Source: a virus
Lineage: Duplodnaviria > Caudoviricetes
Reading direction: 5' to 3' (one strand)
Length of the DNA: 38,876 bases
IMG/VR virus record: IMGVR_UViG_3300046010_003086
Location: 1-38,876 of that record
Under the pieces are notes generated by a model. It was not told where the DNA came from and did no database searches. It saw only the letters and a program-made list of their open reading frames with translations. A program made the translations under genes and the position numbers. Positions 2,779 to 32,927 of the stretch are shown one piece after another (position 1 is the first letter of the stretch; each line of letters opens with the position of its first letter).

Positions 2779-3642
2779 CTAGATATACGCTGACTGCCAG
2801 GTCACAACAGCCCCTGTCACACCCACTACTGTACTACCTGCGTTGCCTGTCAGGTAGAAAGAGTTATTGCCTGGCTGTGCGGAGAACCACTCTCCAGATG
2901 TCAGTAGGTTGCGAGCAGGGTTGCCGTTCAAAGTGATGAGCTTGTTGTATAGGTCAATGACGAGATAGTCGGTGTTGGTGATACTGCAGGTGAAGTTCAG
3001 CTCCTTACCCTCTGTGTCATTTCCGAGTATCGGGTTATCTATCGGCCCATTGAGTGTGATGGTCGGATAGGTATCAGTCCATCCGTTGTTAGTGATAGTG
3101 GTGACGATTTCTACGCTACCTCCACCATATTCGAGGTTGTACACGCGGTCATAAGTACGACCCCCAGGAGGTGTATAGGCGAGCGTAGCTGTTTGGATAT
3201 TGCTGTCATAGTAGCGAGGGTCAGGGCAGAAGAAGTTCACCTGCCCCACGATGTATCCATATGTGTAGTTAGGATCGAGAGTGACCTGCATACCTCTCAC
3301 GCGAGCGTTGATGACCTGCTCACCCTCAGCGTTTGAGAGTAGAAAGTAGAGAGGTGTAGTGCCTGATGTCTGAGGCAGTAGGGCTCTCTGTAATGTGTTG
3401 AAGTTAGCCTGAGCTGATGCTCCAGGTGAGCCCGTGACCTGAAAGGTGATGCTGATATTTCGACCAGCTAGGAAGTCGCGACCTGTGAACATACCATCGG
3501 CATATCCTCGGTTGTCATCCTGATTGCGGATACCTGGCAGACCCTCTAGACCATCCACAGCGAGTATCTGATATGGCGATCCTGTACCGCCGAACACCTG
3601 ATTGTTGAAAGAAAACGAATAGTTGGCTATGACCTGTGGCAT
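2779..3642 (-). CDS. Distal tail protein (Dit)
   Basis: Immediately downstream of tape measure; FFCPDPRYY, NNG..TYPTITLNGP and PGNN motifs. Confidence 0.75.
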   Translation of the reverse strand: MPQVIANYSFSFNNQVFGGTGSPYQILAVDGLEGLPGIRNQDDNRGYADGMFTGRDFLAGRNISITFQVTGSPGASAQANFNTLQRALLPQTSGTTPLYFLLSNAEGEQVINARVRGMQVTLDPNYTYGYIVGQVNFFCPDPRYYDSNIQTATLAYTPPGGRTYDRVYNLEYGGGSVEIVTTITNNGWTDTYPTITLNGPIDNPILGNDTEGKELNFTCSITNTDYLVIDLYNKLITLNGNPARNLLTSGEWFSAQPGNNSFYLTGNAGSTVVGVTGAVVTWQSAYI

Positions 3643-19559: not shown

Positions 19560-20948
19560 CTATAGTCCTCCGGTCTTGAGCGTAGCCACGATGATAGCAG
19601 TTCCACACTTCATGCAGAGATGCATTGACTTTGGATTAGGCATCCCACAGCTAGGGCAGACATTTGCTAGAGAGTTGAAGTAGTTGCTGATGGATGATGT
19701 ACCGAGCAGATCAGAGAACGCTTGCACCATCGCATCTAGTCTGTCAGGAGATGTCGGGTCTGCCGGTGTCCATGTAGTCATCTGATCCTCTAATTTGTGG
19801 AAGATACCGACATGGTGGATACGACCCTGCTCATACATAGCAGCGACAGGCTCTGCTCTGAGTTTCTTACCCACATGAGCTCGTATCTCTCGTATAGGCA
19901 GTACAGGTCTGACCTGTTTGAGGACTGCGCTGACCATATCTCCGCCCTGATTGACCTCGACTAGCAGCGAGTCAGCCTTGTACTCGTCAAAGAGAGCTAC
20001 AGCCTTTGTAGCCCAGTCTAGAGGTGAGCCGCGCATAGAGTGGTCAGCTATGAGATATCCATGACCGGATGTATCGCATCCAGCTACGACTATGCCAGTC
20101 TCATCAGAGCTAGCGGTATTGGTGACTGCAGGGTCTATAGATACGACTATGCGTGAGAGATGAGGCCGTTCCTCGACTCTGCATCGCTCTATGAGCCCTC
20201 TAGTCCAGAGAGCACCCTCGACATCCTCCAGGATTTCCCCATATAGCTCCTGCCTACCTAGTCTGGTCTCGTTATATCGAGCCTGTAGCTCGGCGAGCGC
20301 GATAGAGCTGAGGTTGGCTGCATTGTCAAAGGTCGAGCCTCTAGTCACATAGGTAGTAGATCGAGATACGAGATCGCGTATGAGCTGTGTAGGTCTAGGC
20401 GTAGTAGTGACCACTACACGCGGATTCTCGCCTAGTCGGAGGCCGAACTGGAGTTGATCCCAGGTGTCCTCGTACTCCCAGGCTGCTAGCTCGTCACACC
20501 ATGCGCCATGATGCTGTGGGCCACGCAGGGTATCTGGCTCCTCGGCAGAAAAGCCCTTTATCATTGAGCCGTTTGGCAGGTTTATCTTTGTTCGTGATCT
20601 GTTGTACTCCTGCTCTGAGTAGAGCCCATAGCGTTTGAGCACAGAGAGCACACCTGACTCACCCTCGAAGCAGGTATCTCGGACATCTGCGTGAGTCCTA
20701 GCTACTACTGCCCATCTCGTGTTCGGGCGTGTTATCGCCTCGTACACTATCCACTCCGCCCCTGTCCTCGTCTTGCCCCATCCGCGCCCCGACAGAATCA
20801 TCCACACTTGCCACATCGTCTCCGGTGGTAGCTGATTCGATCTCGCCTGTATCTCCTGCCATTGGACTCTCGACTGAGCTATCTGCAGAGTTTTGTCTGA
20901 GTAGCTCGGCAAGGTCGCGTACTGCTCTGTCAATGCTCTCGCCTCCAT
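19560..20948 (-). CDS. terL: Terminase large subunit
   Basis: Walker A SGRGWGKT, LRGPQ, Walker B AWCDE, VVTTTP, nuclease SIDPA and DRLDA; start uncertain. Confidence 0.96.
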   Translation of the reverse strand: MEARALTEQYATLPSYSDKTLQIAQSRVQWQEIQARSNQLPPETMWQVWMILSGRGWGKTRTGAEWIVYEAITRPNTRWAVVARTHADVRDTCFEGESGVLSVLKRYGLYSEQEYNRSRTKINLPNGSMIKGFSAEEPDTLRGPQHHGAWCDELAAWEYEDTWDQLQFGLRLGENPRVVVTTTPRPTQLIRDLVSRSTTYVTRGSTFDNAANLSSIALAELQARYNETRLGRQELYGEILEDVEGALWTRGLIERCRVEERPHLSRIVVSIDPAVTNTASSDETGIVVAGCDTSGHGYLIADHSMRGSPLDWATKAVALFDEYKADSLLVEVNQGGDMVSAVLKQVRPVLPIREIRAHVGKKLRAEPVAAMYEQGRIHHVGIFHKLEDQMTTWTPADPTSPDRLDAMVQAFSDLLGTSSISNYFNSLANVCPSCGMPNPKSMHLCMKCGTAIIVATLKTGGL

Positions 20949-21306
20949 CCCATACGGTCACATCCTGAGCGATTTTGACCGGCATATCTAGTCCCATGAG
21001 TTTCGCTCTACGCTCCATGATCCTCAGTACAGTCGCTATAGCTGAGTTGTCACCCTTCATCGCGTTGGGCCACGCGGCGAGCTGTAGTCGATCTAGTCGA
21101 TCTATCTCTGCCTGTCGTAGCTCCTCGGCTGGCTGTTGCAGCACACGCTTGAGGGCTCGTTTGTAGGCTAGATATGCGCCTGAGTGGTCTGCATATCCAA
21201 CCTGTTCAGCTATACGCTGCCATGTGAGTCCAGCCCTGCGTAGTTCGAGGACTTTGAGCTCTCGGTCTAGCTGTTCTGGCTCTGGTACTGCATTGTGAGT
21301 CGGCAT
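20698..21306 (-). CDS. terS: Terminase small subunit
   Basis: HTH LELRRAGLTWQRIAEQVGY; ERRAKLMGLD; directly upstream of terL. Confidence 0.8.
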   Translation of the reverse strand: MPTHNAVPEPEQLDRELKVLELRRAGLTWQRIAEQVGYADHSGAYLAYKRALKRVLQQPAEELRQAEIDRLDRLQLAAWPNAMKGDNSAIATVLRIMERRAKLMGLDMPVKIAQDVTVWDGGESIDRAVRDLAELLRQNSADSSVESPMAGDTGEIESATTGDDVASVDDSVGARMGQDEDRGGVDSVRGDNTPEHEMGSSS

Positions 21307-21313
21307 GGTGGGA

Positions 21314-22111
21314 TTACACCTCGCTCACGATGGTATCGAGCCCTGAGATCGGATTTGCACCGTCTTGGTCTAGCAGGGAGCTAGATGCATCGCTGTCAAT
21401 GCTTCCAGGGCGTATTCCGCGATACATACGAGCCCCATACTCGTCTATCGCAGAAAAGGGGAGGATAGGTACTGTGAGCCTATCCAAAACTGTCTCGTGC
21501 AGAGGATACAAGTATCTGAGCTGAAAGCCAGGCAAACACTCCGCGCCTATGCGCTTGAGGAACGATGTAGATGTCTCTGTGCCGGTCTTGCCATAGCGAG
21601 CCTTGATACTGCCCTTCCCTGCGTTAGGGCTAAAGCCTGGCTCTAGGACTATTTTGGCTACGACCTCTCCATCAGGCATACGCCACATAGAGTTGTTCTG
21701 TTTGATGCCTATCAGCTTGAAGCCTGATGCTCGGTAGATAGTCCCATCCCCACATTGAGTCCCATCTGCGTAGCTGAGTATCCACTCCACATGAGGAGCG
21801 TGTTTGCGTATCAGGCGCATGGCTATAGATAGGGCTCTGCTCTCGCTGTTCTTAGGCAGCAGATCAGAGAATGCGAGTCTGTTCAGCTCCATGAAGCCGT
21901 TCCAGGGGGTGTCTTTGACTAGCCCGATGGTCTTGTTTTTGTCTATGGATGGGCCGAACTGCATACAGCCCTCTAGTCTCCCCTTGAGAAAGACTCCGAG
22001 ATGTAGCTGAGATCGAGGATCGACTTTGCCTGAGTAGTGATGCTTGCGCACGAATGCCATAGCATCGCTAGAGGCTATCGGCTCAACCCTGAGCTCTTTG
22101 GCTGATGGCAT
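21314..22111 (-). CDS. mom: Mom-family (GNAT-fold) DNA adenine modification protein
   Basis: HHYSGK, ELNRL, KNSESR, LSYAD and GTIYRASGF motifs; SD AGGAG. Confidence 0.85.
   Translation of the reverse strand: MPSAKELRVEPIASSDAMAFVRKHHYSGKVDPRSQLHLGVFLKGRLEGCMQFGPSIDKNKTIGLVKDTPWNGFMELNRLAFSDLLPKNSESRALSIAMRLIRKHAPHVEWILSYADGTQCGDGTIYRASGFKLIGIKQNNSMWRMPDGEVVAKIVLEPGFSPNAGKGSIKARYGKTGTETSTSFLKRIGAECLPGFQLRYLYPLHETVLDRLTVPILPFSAIDEYGARMYRGIRPGSIDSDASSSLLDQDGANPISGLDTIVSEV
21339..21411 (-). tRNA. Non-canonical tRNA-Gly(CCC)-like element inside the mom 3' end
   Basis: Acceptor GCCCTGG/TCAGGGC; D arm GCAT-TGACAGCG-ATGC; anticodon arm TCTAG-CTCCCTG-CTAGA; variable CCAA; T arm GACGG-TGCAAAT-CCG(A)TC; discriminator T; 73 nt. 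Confidence 0.75.
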
Positions 22112-22697
22112 CTAGCCACTCCTGACATATCGCCCATAGTGCATTGCCGTTGCTGTTTTTGTTGTCTGAGTCTGTGAAATCGTGAGCCTGTTTTGACTGT
22201 TTGATGGCGTGGCTGATGAGCTCTGCCTGTACTAGGGTCATCGTGAAGGTCATCTGGGTGGCATCATCGCGCTCGCCTGTAGGCACATCTGCGAAGGCAT
22301 CCTCTAGAGATCGTACCTCTGCGACTGCAGCCTCGAAGCCGATGTCTGCGATATCCCATCCCTCATCCTGTAGCTCCATGAGTTGTTGGGCGAGGACTAC
22401 CTCATCCCACTCTGCGAGCTCTGCGGAGCGATTGTCTGCGAGCGCGTAGGCTTTCGCTGTATCGCTATCCCACTCATCCGGTACTCGCACTATCACTATC
22501 TCTGTCCATCCGATGCTCTTGGCAGCCTCTATTGTCCCATTACCTGCTAGGACTGTACTGCCCTGTACGACTATCGGCTTACGCTGACCGAAGCGGCGCA
22601 GACTATTAGCGATAGCCCTGAGATTGACCTCAGAGTGTTTGCGAGCGTTTGATGGATCGAGTGTGAGCGAGCTGATGGGTACGGTCATCGTATCCAT
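22083..22697 (-). CDS. ParB/Srx-domain protein paired with Mom
   Basis: DPSNARKH, SLRRFGQRKPIVV, LAGNG, ALADNR; C-terminal NSNGNAL domain; SD GAGGAGG before ATG 22697. Confidence 0.88.
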   Translation of the reverse strand: MDTMTVPISSLTLDPSNARKHSEVNLRAIANSLRRFGQRKPIVVQGSTVLAGNGTIEAAKSIGWTEIVIVRVPDEWDSDTAKAYALADNRSAELAEWDEVVLAQQLMELQDEGWDIADIGFEAAVAEVRSLEDAFADVPTGERDDATQMTFTMTLVQAELISHAIKQSKQAHDFTDSDNKNSNGNALWAICQEWLDAISQRAQG

Positions 22698-22707
22698 GTG
22701 CGCCTCC

Positions 22708-22842
22708 TCAGAACTCAAGCCAGATATAGAACGGGCCGATATCTATGCCGAGTGAATATCTATCTATGTGGAAGCCTAAACCAAAACACCGCGCAACGCC
22801 AATGATGAGCCAGCTACTGCCGATGCGTATCTCTCTAGTCAT
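22708..22842 (-). CDS. Small beta-rich hypothetical protein (44 aa, not in ORF track)
   Basis: MTREIRIGSSWLIIGVARCFGLGFHIDRYSLGIDIGPFYIWLEF fills the gap between neighbours. Confidence 0.6.
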   Translation of the reverse strand: MTREIRIGSSWLIIGVARCFGLGFHIDRYSLGIDIGPFYIWLEF

Positions 22843-23035
22843 CAGGGAAAGCGTTGCCCTTTTGTATCAGATTGAGTCGGGCATCTAGGAGATCATCTAT
22901 GGAGCTCTGTAGCATCTCGCGCTTTCTCCAGTTCATGCGATTGCCATACTCATCAGTTTTGAGCATGGCGTATGTATGCCGGATAGCCTCGTCTATATCG
23001 GCTACCGAGATGTCCTCTGTGATGACTACGCTCAT
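22835..23035 (-). CDS. Hypothetical protein
   Basis: 66 aa; TATGAT lies 6 nt upstream of the ATG (possible leaderless start). Confidence 0.7.
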   Translation of the reverse strand: MSVVITEDISVADIDEAIRHTYAMLKTDEYGNRMNWRKREMLQSSIDDLLDARLNLIQKGNAFPDD

Positions 23036-23050
23036 GCGCAGATCATAGAA

Positions 23051-23209
23051 CTACTTACGCGGTTTGCGCTTGAGCTCCTCCTCTAGCTCCTCCCGATGGA
23101 GGTCTAGCAGGTTCTCTATTTTGAAGGCTAGGTTCTCGTATCCGCGAGCGCGTATGCGCTCTGCGACTGTCTGTAGGATGACTGCTATCTGTGGATCGTC
23201 ACTTATCAC
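23051..23209 (-). CDS. Hypothetical protein (52 aa, not in ORF track)
   Basis: SD GAGGAG + GTG; MISDDPQIAVILQTVAERIRARG...KRKPRK fills the gap. Confidence 0.6.
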   Translation of the reverse strand: MISDDPQIAVILQTVAERIRARGYENLAFKIENLLDLHREELEEELKRKPRK

Positions 23210-23378
23210 TCGGTACTCCTCTGAGAAAGTCTAGGAGTTGCTCCACGATGACCACATCTCGACCATCTATGTGATGATGGTAGTCACCGGCAAATGCCTC
23301 TATTTCCCTGATGATGTTGTTCCGAGTCTGATGCTCTAGAGCTCTCATCATGGTCTGTAATGTTTCAAGGTCTGCCAT
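23199..23378 (-). CDS. Hypothetical protein
   Basis: SD AGGAG before MADLETLQ. Confidence 0.65.
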   Translation of the reverse strand: MADLETLQTMMRALEHQTRNNIIREIEAFAGDYHHHIDGRDVVIVEQLLDFLRGVPSDK

Positions 23379-31287: not shown

Positions 31288-31424
31288 TGTGCCTCTCCTG
31301 TGGGGACTGCCGTAGAGAGCATCCCTACTCTGTAGATGACTCCATAGACTCGTTCGAGGCTACCAATCTACTGATGAGCCAGTCCACCACCGGTACAGCC
31401 ACAGCGTTGCCGAGCTGTTTGTAG
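31287..31424 (+). CDS. Possible tiny Cys-motif peptide (MCLSCGDC..H)
   Basis: TAATG coupling to the previous gene; 3' part overlaps the methylase antisense. Confidence 0.35.
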   Translation: MCLSCGDCRREHPYSVDDSIDSFEATNLLMSQSTTGTATALPSCL

Positions 31425-32104
31425 CGATGGCTATCAGCCTGTCCCTCAGTCCATCCATCAGGGAAGCCCTGTAGTCGCTCACACTCTGTAGGTGTCAGTC
31501 GTCTGACAGTAGATGTGAAGAGTGTCTGAAAGTTAGAAGTACGCAGCGAGAACGAGGTATCGGATACCAACGGCCCCTTACCGCCCCCAGGTTTGCCCTC
31601 TCGATCCTGCATCACCATAGGTTGATCCATATACACCACTCCCATCTTGTCCATATCTGTACCTGATCTCAGAGTCTGCGCTGTATCGCTAGTCGTCTGG
31701 TTATAGGTATCAAATGTCTGAGCTACGAATAACTGAGCATGATGGCTCTGTACTGATGGCTGATGAGCCTGTAGTGCTAGGGCTGTATCTGTAGGTGTAG
31801 CTGAGAAAGTGTCAGCCTTTGCATCCTCTCGTATCGAGTAGGCGACTGTCTCATCCTCACCCTCCTGATAGACCATCGGCATATTGTTCCCACCTGTTCC
31901 CATACGCGCCTGTAGCGTGTTGATTTTGTCATCCTGGATGCGTATGTCATCCACGCGATTGCCATAGAAAACGATGACAGTAGCTCGTGTCTCGTGTGCG
32001 TTATCAAATACATTCAAGGTAGGTACTACCCCCCCCATCGCCCATGACTCGTTATCCTCAACAGTCTGAGCCCGTCTAGTCTTGACTGCCCACAGTAGGT
32101 TCAT
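31325..32104 (-). CDS. C5-cytosine methyltransferase, C-terminal part (TRD-like repeats + motifs IX-X)
   Basis: RRLTPTECERLQGFPDGWT and RYKQLGNAVAVPVV. Confidence 0.88.
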   Translation of the reverse strand: MNLLWAVKTRRAQTVEDNESWAMGGVVPTLNVFDNAHETRATVIVFYGNRVDDIRIQDDKINTLQARMGTGGNNMPMVYQEGEDETVAYSIREDAKADTFSATPTDTALALQAHQPSVQSHHAQLFVAQTFDTYNQTTSDTAQTLRSGTDMDKMGVVYMDQPMVMQDREGKPGGGKGPLVSDTSFSLRTSNFQTLFTSTVRRLTPTECERLQGFPDGWTEGQADSHRYKQLGNAVAVPVVDWLISRLVASNESMESSTE

Positions 32105-32927
32105 CTATCAACACCATCTGCATCCTGCCCTTATCGGGCATCCGTTGTTCGTTCGAGGTGGCTGTCAGAGCCTGTGCCGTTGTTGATCCATCCCACCATG
32201 TCATCGTGTCATGCGCTCGCGATGCATTGAGCGATGGGCTTACTTCTCCGGTGGGGAAATCGTAGAGCTCGAAGTTTCCAGCCCTGCTACCTGCTCCAAC
32301 GCTGTCTGTAGCTGAGTCGGTAGGGTCTTGCCCCTTCTTCCTGCTCGGCGGAGTATCCCCTGCGCTGCCTTCGGCGAGATCGAGTACTTCTGCAGGTGTT
32401 CTCCAGTCGTCTCCAAGACATCCGACAATGAAGATTCTGCGCCGTCTTTGGGGGACTCCGAAGTATTGAGCATCAAGCACACGCCACGCGATGCTATACC
32501 CCCTTTCAGCCAACGCCCCGATGACGACTCCCATATCCCTTCCTCCACTAGATGTGAGCAGACCAGGGACATTTTCAAGGATGAAATACCGCGCCTTCGT
32601 TTCATCAAGGAGTCTGCAGATTTCCCAGAAAAGTCCAGACCTAGCTCCTGCGAGCCCTGCTCGTTTCCCTGCCACAGACAAGTCTTGGCATGGAAATCCT
32701 CCAACGATGACTCCGTGTTGCGGAGTAAATCCTGCGCTAATGAGTTGCTCACCTGATACCTCCTGGATATCGCCTAGTATCTGACTGTTTGGGAACTGTT
32801 TGCGCAGTACACCCTGCGCGTGTTTGTCTATCTCTACTGATGCTACGACTTTGACCCCATTACGCTCTAGAACTAGATCAAAGCCTCCGATACCTGCGAA
32901 CAGGGATACTGCAGTCATCTGTGTCAT
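32076..32927 (-). CDS. dcm: C5-cytosine methyltransferase, N-terminal catalytic part (motifs I-VIII)
   Basis: SLFAGIGG, GGFPCQD, ENV and PQRRRR. Confidence 0.93.
   Translation of the reverse strand: MTQMTAVSLFAGIGGFDLVLERNGVKVVASVEIDKHAQGVLRKQFPNSQILGDIQEVSGEQLISAGFTPQHGVIVGGFPCQDLSVAGKRAGLAGARSGLFWEICRLLDETKARYFILENVPGLLTSSGGRDMGVVIGALAERGYSIAWRVLDAQYFGVPQRRRRIFIVGCLGDDWRTPAEVLDLAEGSAGDTPPSRKKGQDPTDSATDSVGAGSRAGNFELYDFPTGEVSPSLNASRAHDTMTWWDGSTTAQALTATSNEQRMPDKGRMQMVLIDEPTVGSQD
32240..32752 (-). CDS. Nested alternative-frame methyltransferase subunit (EcoHK31I beta-like, putative)
   Basis: 170-codon same-strand ORF inside dcm; SSLSDVLE...KYSISPKAAQGILRRA.RRGK.LP..L..AL; SD CAGGAGG upstream of GTG. 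Confidence 0.6.
   Translation of the reverse strand: MSNSLAQDLLRNTESSLEDFHAKTCLWQGNEQGSQELGLDFSGKSADSLMKRRRGISSLKMSLVCSHLVEEGIWESSSGRWLKGGIASRGVCLMLNTSESPKDGAESSLSDVLETTGEHLQKYSISPKAAQGILRRAGRRGKTLPTQLQTALEQVAGLETSSSTISPPEK

Follow-up and report, generated by a model that had tools for sequence, protein, structure and literature searches.

A tRNA-Gly-like RNA element of 73 nt with the anticodon CCC lies in the 3' end of the mom gene of the virus IMGVR_UViG_3300046010_003086 (Duplodnaviria; Caudoviricetes), at 21339-21411 on the minus strand of the 38,876-nt stretch analyzed here (the window), which is a complete virus record and was found in DNA runs of lake and freshwater metagenomes. Comparison with relatives makes it virtually certain that the element is a real, mom-linked RNA gene derived from tRNA-Gly and not a product of chance. 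The reading we favor, with a probability of roughly 0.65, is that it acts as Mom's own glycyl carrier for DNA adenine modification, cut from the mom transcript, charged by the host's glycyl-tRNA synthetase (GlyRS), and probably avoiding the ribosome. The same pairing of enzyme and private glycyl carrier had been proposed from the letters of the window alone (hereafter the original prediction), and it is supported, as far as sequence comparison goes, by covariation, by GlyRS determinants, and by linkage to mom. We also consider it fairly probable that a large clade of phage and prophage Mom proteins is equipped with its own non-ribosomal glycyl-carrier RNA, running through the end or the start of mom, which would keep only what GlyRS and Mom need (G1:C72, C2:G71, C35, C36, and U73-CCA) and shed what elongation factor Tu (EF-Tu) and the ribosome need, including, in some lineages, the entire D arm.

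The letters of the minus strand at 21339-21411 are identical to those of the original prediction, and the four-arm, 73-nt cloverleaf drawn there is the minimum free energy (MFE) fold of the isolated element (-29.9 kcal/mol, z = -4.08; one of 200 shuffles equals it). The 5' strand of the acceptor stem occupies element positions 1-7, with G1 and C2 (21405-21411), and pairs with 21340-21346; the 3' strand together with the discriminator base U73 (21339) spans 21339-21346 and is followed by CGA, not CCA. By sequence and fold, the D arm (positions 10-25; 21387-21402) has the stem GCAT/ATGC and the loop TGACAGCG, which contains no GG. The anticodon arm (positions 27-43; 21369-21385) presents CCC at 21376-21378, and the T arm (positions 48-65; 21347-21364) has the loop UGCAAAU and a bulged A at 21349. 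In relatives, four of four D-stem pairs and five of five pairs in each of the anticodon and T arms covary.

Decoding tRNAs share the core bases U8, G18-G19, U33, and T54-Psi55-C56. The window copy retains U33, and all of the rule violations listed in the original prediction are present in its sequence: A8, the D loop without GG, U37, G-U-G-C replacing G-U-U-C, a T stem whose 3' strand carries a bulged A (CCG-A-TC), and a following CGA instead of CCA. The claimed GlyRS identity elements are likewise all there, so that the published set of bacterial determinants, G1:C72, C2:G71, C35, C36, and U73 (PMC10464925), is complete in the window copy.

Standard tools miss the element. ARAGORN with default settings calls no tRNA gene in the 38.9-kb window, an Rfam search of 20800-22000 at E <= 10 gave no tRNA match and returned only a chance snoRNA-like match, and the window copy falls short of the gathering score of RF00005 (29 bits). 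When its thresholds are relaxed to 90% (-ps90), as the original prediction had proposed, ARAGORN calls a tRNA-Gly(ccc) at 21338-21411(-), the sole call in the window. Two covariance models were built from relatives. R1, made from 25 elements, scores the window element at 79.9 bits, the window copy being part of its seed; R2, made from a 64-68-nt short form and containing no sequence of the long class to which the window element belongs, picks only the 21339-21411 site in the window (28.7 bits, E 2.4e-4).

Relatives were gathered through the Mom protein. A search of IMG/VR gave 20 loci, in four of which (Mom approximately 59-63% identical) default ARAGORN reports a tRNA-Gly(tcc) at the very end of mom. 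With an alignment query, 80 viral relatives, the best of 582, were obtained, together with 67 loci on bacterial and archaeal genome contigs from many phyla. The Mom-selected set comprises 161 sources, which are not independent, and holds 114 distinct element sequences. Default ARAGORN over the 161 mom loci finds a tRNA in 14, of which 13 are tRNA-Gly and one, with an odd anticodon loop, has no determined anticodon. R1 gives 138 matches in 136 of the 161 sources, all at the 3' end of mom and all but three on the mom strand, and R2 recovers 15 more loci, of the short class, that R1 missed, which brings the sources with an element to 151. Six of the ten others are cut by contig ends or hold Mom fragments, and four have intact flanks. 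At locus L011, which has tandem mom paralogues (1501-2208 and ~2220-2990), the element (2899-2971) is present only in the second.

The association of mom and element is tight in both search directions. IMG/VR was scanned with a 29-base pattern for the T arm and acceptor end without consulting mom, and 80 flanked loci were counted, 40 with 300-nt flanks being excluded. Roughly 370 stretches carry the motif, and ~1200 IMG/VR stretches bear Mom. Mom was sought near the motif by tblastn, Pfam, and hidden Markov model (tblastn alone missed L166 and L198) and is directly adjacent in 75 of the 80. The gene ends at the element in 55 and starts at it in 20 (L175, L183, L188, and 17 others in L163-L242), where the motif overlaps the first codons of a Mom 25-49% identical to the queries. 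Among the five loci lacking Mom, L184 and L219 are cut within 240 nt of the element, and L170, L223, and L239 have long flanks. The element of L239 (1476-1529 region) stands between a C5 DNA methylase and the large terminase subunit (TerL), and that of L170 follows a glycosyltransferase-like open reading frame (ORF). One cultured close relative, Psychrobacter phage vB_PmaS_Y8A (OQ059336.1), carries two tandem short-class copies (L162:3162-3226 and 3234-3299) within its 165-nt mom-terS gap; both are unannotated, and its Mom is annotated 'hypothetical protein'.

The cloverleaf is conserved near mom homologues and covaries, which gives a positive answer to the conservation and covariation test suggested with the original prediction. 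In 58 distinct long-class sequences, 98.2% of cells are standard pairs and both sides have changed in 19 of the 21 pairs. Covariation scores 0.765, whereas sliding the partners by 1-3 columns gives 0.09-0.15 and shuffling 0.195; none of 500 shuffles of the 58 sequences came up to the observed value, and an earlier set of 25 sequences had led to the same result. The NCC anticodon, U73, and the T-stem bulge, which had been singled out for checking, are almost invariant in these relatives.

Since the 58-sequence alignment leans towards structure, a structure-independent test was added with 10 close relatives chosen by protein identity only (Mom 95-100% identical). The mom body varies at 87 of 700 sites, 65 of them third codon positions; the element varies at 4 of 73, none of them a third codon position. 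Of the four variable sites, two are the partners in pair 30:40, where A30:U40 gives way to G30:C40 in a compensatory exchange; a third is anticodon base 34 (C to U), and the fourth lies in the T loop. All four changes alter the amino acid (SSSLL to SGFLP in L004). Selection that acts on nucleotides regardless of codons, as seen here, is the signature of an RNA gene.

The determinants for GlyRS are kept while the features of a decoding tRNA (U8, U33, the T-loop TTC, and the D-loop GG) are eroded. G1:C72, C2:G71, C35, and C36 are invariant in all 58 long-class sequences, and U73 and the bulged A of the T stem are each present in 57. U8 occurs in 19 (A in 38) and U33 in 35; position 55 is G in 42 and U in 16, and at base 34 there are 42 U, 8 A, 7 C, and 1 G. 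Sequences with an encoded CCA number 35 of the 58 in the long class and 52 of the 56 in the short class (87 of 114 together). Only 4 of 18 long-class elements pass the Rfam tRNA threshold, at 32-47 bits, compared with 62-76 bits for the tRNA-Gly and tRNA-Thr of the hosts in four prophage-carrying genomes (tRNA-Gly 62-73 bits), which default ARAGORN calls.

Elements of the short class (64-68 nt) keep the acceptor stem, an NCC anticodon-like hairpin, the bulged T arm, and U73-CCA, and have a loop in place of the D arm; examples are L016:1017-1083 and the tandem pairs L085:2292-2357 with 2362-2426 and L148:1499-1564 with 1574-1639. Mitochondrial tRNAs lacking the D arm exist, and like them the short class retains acceptor, anticodon-like, and T arms around a replacement loop; unlike them it is bacterial or viral, linked to mom, and keeps its Gly identity. 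The window copy itself has a D arm. On a quick, unrooted Mom tree, 17 changes are required for the long label and 14 for the short one, and well-supported branches force no fewer than six of them, so the two forms have been switched or exchanged several times.

The frame of mom relative to the element was mapped with a frame-walking script. In the window the element corresponds to codons 234-258 of mom, past the Mom domain and within the tail formed by residues 230-265, and ends 22 nt ahead of the stop codon. Read-through of the element by the mom ORF accounts for 92 of the 114 distinct cases; the ORF stops within the element in 9 and ahead of it in 11, and in the other 2 the element is antisense. 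The loci with an inverted element (L138:2197-2267(-), L139, and L144:2167-2236(-)) are Bacteroidota-associated; the element converges on mom and covers its last codons, and in L138 and L144 mom stops mid-element. An inverted element must therefore have its own promoter there. Tandem duplicates occur in L085, L148, and Psychrobacter phage Y8A. The existence of intergenic, antisense, and tandem copies argues for a free-standing RNA that acts in trans.

The peptide that results from reading through the element appears incidental. Entropy at the three codon positions is flat in the element (0.83/0.87/0.97) and periodic in mom just upstream (0.69/0.55/1.58), and for the 3' half of short-class elements each of the three frames is in use (22, 17, and 15 cases). 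AlphaFold2, run with a shallow 6-row alignment, models the Mom domain with good confidence and gives residues 230-265 a predicted local distance difference test score below 50, consistent with disorder. Together with the mom genes that stop before or inside the element and the antisense copies, these results suggest that the tail peptide has no role of its own. The original prediction had called the tail nothing but read-through of the RNA gene. This is largely borne out for the peptide, on which no coding constraint is seen, but not for the frame: whatever the linker length, and many lengths occur, 41 of 47 long-class and 48 of 54 short-class cases preserve the ORF's frame of entry into the element. 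Of 81 read-through cases, 60 have the mom stop -10 to +20 nt from a possible start of the next long ORF, with peaks at -4 and -1, a count somewhat inflated by the choice of the nearest start. Translational coupling to the next gene is a likely reason for maintaining the frame.

The mom gene itself (21314-22111, minus strand) encodes 265 aa, with a Mom domain at residues 6-220 (21452-22096) that matches PF25680 at 169.6 bits (8.9e-50; cut-off 27.1 bits) and phrog_1384. The counterparts of Mu Mom R111 and S124 occupy invariant columns in an alignment with Mu Mom, and since both residues are reported to be essential for catalysis by Mu Mom (PMC13219725), the enzyme encoded in the window looks active. 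This Mom clade has a conserved C-terminal motif, LTVP.LPFS.I...GA.MY[RK]G, at residues ~205-232 (21412-21500), immediately ahead of the element, which Mu Mom does not have.

Mu Mom transfers glycine from Gly-tRNAGly to the N6 of adenine (Silva et al., Nat Commun 2026; PMC13219725); this is the report to which the original prediction had referred. It accepts all three E. coli tRNAGly isoacceptors and does not accept Gly-tRNAAla, and the authors suggest that Mom reads mainly the acceptor end of the tRNA (PMC13219725). Mu Mom belongs to the same family as the Mom of the window (PF25680, with R111 and S124 conserved), for which the same chemistry is predicted; Mu draws on host tRNAs and, unlike the window phage, has no such RNA near mom.

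In the mechanism we propose, the element would be transcribed together with parB, mom, and terS, because no promoter-like or terminator-like site lies near it: when 20900-23300 was scanned for promoters and terminators, no promoter-like site came up, and the minus strand yielded nothing. RNase P and 3' trimming would then release it from the mom transcript, the CCA-adding enzyme of the host would complete its 3' end, and host GlyRS would glycylate it. Poor binding to EF-Tu and the ribosome would follow from its deformed elbow, its bulged T stem, and the variability of U33. The Mom proteins of this clade would prefer, or at least use, the glycylated element, so that glycine could be delivered to DNA adenines apart from the host's translational tRNA pool. 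As for the frame, its preservation across the element would serve chiefly to let ribosomes get to the start of the next gene.

Dedicated non-proteogenic tRNAs for aminoacyl-tRNA-dependent transferases are already known. The non-proteogenic (NP) tRNAGly species NP1-NP3 of S. aureus and S. epidermidis are glycine donors for FmhB, FemA, and FemB, and in their genes TGC or TGT replaces the T-loop TTC (PMC7826273), in agreement with the GUGC that the original prediction attributed to them. Like the element, whose T loop in the window has TGC, they are additional tRNAGly molecules without TTC and other marks of decoding. Charging by GlyRS, demonstrated for them, is predicted for the element, and in either case the glycine would go to an aminoacyl-tRNA-dependent transferase and not to the ribosome. 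The element differs in being viral, in having DNA adenine and not peptidoglycan as its acceptor, and in a gene that runs through the reading frame of its own enzyme, and its family in the conserved bulged A of the T stem, A8, a variable base 33, and some forms without a D arm. The staphylococcal lineage has been reported only in staphylococci (PMC7826273), and the hosts here belong to other phyla, so the element is best regarded as a convergent analogue and not as a member of that lineage.

A second precedent is the 76-bp tRNA-Gly-like 'pseudo-tRNA' described within the mom homologue of Dehalococcoides ssrA islands, to which no function was assigned (McMurdie et al., 2011; PMC3146451). It too is a conserved tRNA-Gly-like cloverleaf ('DCC' anticodon) in a Mom homologue that follows a ParB-domain gene. 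It is located in the first 150 bp of mom, on integrative islands of one genus, whereas the element is found at the 3' end in a lake phage and in more than 100 relatives from many phyla. Likened by description, the element and the 16 Dehalococcoides copies probably belong to the same family. The main text of Silva et al. mentions neither the Dehalococcoides pseudo-tRNA nor any encoded tRNA (PMC13219725), and no claim of a phage-encoded glycyl donor for Mom, or of a link between the pseudo-tRNA and Mom chemistry, was found in the open-licence PMC and bioRxiv literature. What would be new here is a viral, DNA-targeting, dedicated non-proteogenic tRNA located inside the gene of its enzyme.

Several observations weigh against the glycyl-carrier reading. 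Any tRNAGly isoacceptor of the host suffices for Mu Mom (PMC13219725), so that a private donor is chemically unnecessary. Four Mom loci with intact flanks (L134, L136, L141, and L147) have no element; conversely, L170, L223, and L239 have an element and no Mom in the flanks covered, which extend 0.8-1.5 kb 5' of it (808 nt in L223) and 1.5 kb 3' of it. The element is also absent near mom from Mu and from five cultured phages with a more distant Mom: R1 found none around Mu mom in ~0.3 kb of upstream and ~0.1 kb of downstream sequence, where the record ends (best score 5.6 bits), and none lies within ~1.2 kb of mom in JD024, SWEP2, PMBT69, pAEv1818, and TCUEAP3. The window copy has no encoded CCA. 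GlyRS requires the arms and the whole L shape of its substrate (PMC10464925), and forms without an elbow or a D arm may therefore be poorly charged. Excision at the 5' end of the element would remove the stop codon from the mom mRNA. Because the entry frame is kept and the mom stop abuts the next start, translation across the element seems to be under selection, which would fit a role in cis as well. The large alignments come from structure-aware searches and hence lean towards structure. A discrete, processed RNA is without support; in the four metatranscriptome runs covered, contigs of X16, X17, and X18 span the element, are 90-99% alike, and carry a G30:C40/UCC variant, but such contigs from RNA libraries cannot show transcription for certain, strand, or RNA ends and were not used as evidence.

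The element might instead work in cis on mom mRNA and carry no glycine, either as an RNase P or RNase Z processing site by which the mom and terS messages are separated or destabilized, or as a substrate mimic by means of which Mom or GlyRS would adjust the translation of mom or terS. That 101 of the 114 unique elements lie within the mom ORF (92 read through, 9 with the stop inside), that the entry frame is kept and the mom stop often abuts the next start, and that no promoter-like or terminator-like site lies near the window element would all suit this explanation. It is nevertheless unlikely, because copies that are antisense, intergenic, in tandem, or 225-358 nt past the mom stop (~670 nt in L059) cannot share one cis action, 20 of the 80 motif-selected loci carry the element at the 5' end of mom, and a processing signal needs neither the invariant C35, C36, and U73 nor the CCA encoded in 87 of 114. 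The free-standing RNA gene found in some genomes is equally what one would expect of a trans-acting tRNA-like RNA with another job, such as a decoy against tRNA-cutting defenses or an uncharged cofactor or scaffold for Mom or ParB, and the three Mom-less loci, near a C5 DNA methylase or a glycosyltransferase, point the same way. We regard such a job as quite improbable: what is conserved is the set of GlyRS determinants and not the anticodon-loop shape seen by anticodon nucleases, U33 and base 34 being variable, and a near-exclusive link to an enzyme that consumes Gly-tRNAGly (PMC13219725) is better explained by glycyl transfer.

The element shares its cloverleaf, Gly anticodon, and GlyRS determinants with ordinary phage tRNAs and canonical bacterial tRNA-Gly, and could in principle be a translational tRNA-Gly that merely overlaps mom. 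Phages often carry tRNAs, the window copy has U33, and the 4 of 18 long-class relatives that pass the Rfam tRNA threshold are in keeping with this, but the window copy matches neither RF00005 nor the default ARAGORN model, and its A8, G55, bulged T stem, and D loop without GG make the idea very unlikely. Base 34 flips among C, U, and A in close relatives, forms without a D arm exist, and the element is the only tRNA-like gene of the phage and stands beside mom. A role as a codon supplement was rejected: GGG, the only codon that CCC reads well, is the rarest Gly codon of the phage (74 of 718 Gly codons), no other tRNA is present in the window, and base 34 drifts. Since integration into a tRNA gene, with part of that gene carried along, is common among phages, an attachment-site remnant of a host tRNA-Gly gene was considered along with a chance fold. 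Both are refuted as far as a comparison of sequences can refute them, and we give them next to no weight; compensatory changes in 19 of 21 pairs speak against chance, and an attachment site would not account for a whole cloverleaf in place of the 3' part alone or for the host tRNA-Gly genes of four prophage-carrying genomes, which are canonical and distinct from the element. The attachment-site candidate was rejected on two further counts: no integrase was found among the 34 ORFs scanned, and a terminase gene follows the element in 4 of the 8 prophage loci checked, which places it between mom and terminase and not at a junction.

The genes around the element are ordered ParB-like, mom, an ORF at the small-terminase position, and TerL, all on the minus strand. 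The ParB-like gene directly upstream of mom (22083-22718) matches phrog_620 (2e-34) and, weakly, PF02195. A ParB-like gene ahead of mom recurs in L138, where it was judged from the translation alone, and likewise in Psychrobacter phage Y8A and the Dehalococcoides islands (PMC3146451), and ParB and Mom may be a functional pair. The ORF at 20698-21306 starts 7 nt past the mom stop and corresponds to the terS of the original prediction. Its position agrees with that name, and its counterpart in phage Y8A is annotated as terminase small subunit; it has no Pfam match, however, and its only PHROG match, phrog_645, is labeled 'Rnase E', so the name terS is used here because of position alone. The label is probably a misnomer for this position. 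The terminase large subunit (19560-20948) matches PF03237 and PF17289, and its C-terminal end is a zinc-ribbon motif (PF13240, residues 431-451). Two adjoining ORFs at 31325-32927 both match DNA methyltransferase PHROGs, and with these two besides mom the phage may be stacking several DNA modifications.

The use of Gly-tRNAGly by Mom was established only in 2023-2026 and has been read as a phage scavenging host tRNA. For annotation, the present results are a warning that what passes for the C-terminal tail in these Mom proteins is an RNA gene, and the two unannotated copies in Psychrobacter phage vB_PmaS_Y8A offer cultured material for bench work. Minimal tRNAs that can be charged and avoid the ribosome would be useful engineering parts. 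If the glycyl-carrier reading is true, it would also explain the long-standing annotation of a 'pseudo-tRNA' inside mom and non-proteogenic tRNAGly would have a second, convergent occurrence, away from the cell-wall synthesis of staphylococci. The family would then be a natural experiment that separates the features of a tRNA needed by GlyRS and Mom from those needed only in translation, including tRNAs without a D arm in bacteria. If many mom genes bring a rebuilt tRNAGly of their own, this would provide independent, genome-wide comparative support for the tRNA-dependent mechanism, and with the element DNA modification would have its first dedicated aminoacyl-tRNA-type cofactor, and viruses their first non-proteinogenic tRNA.

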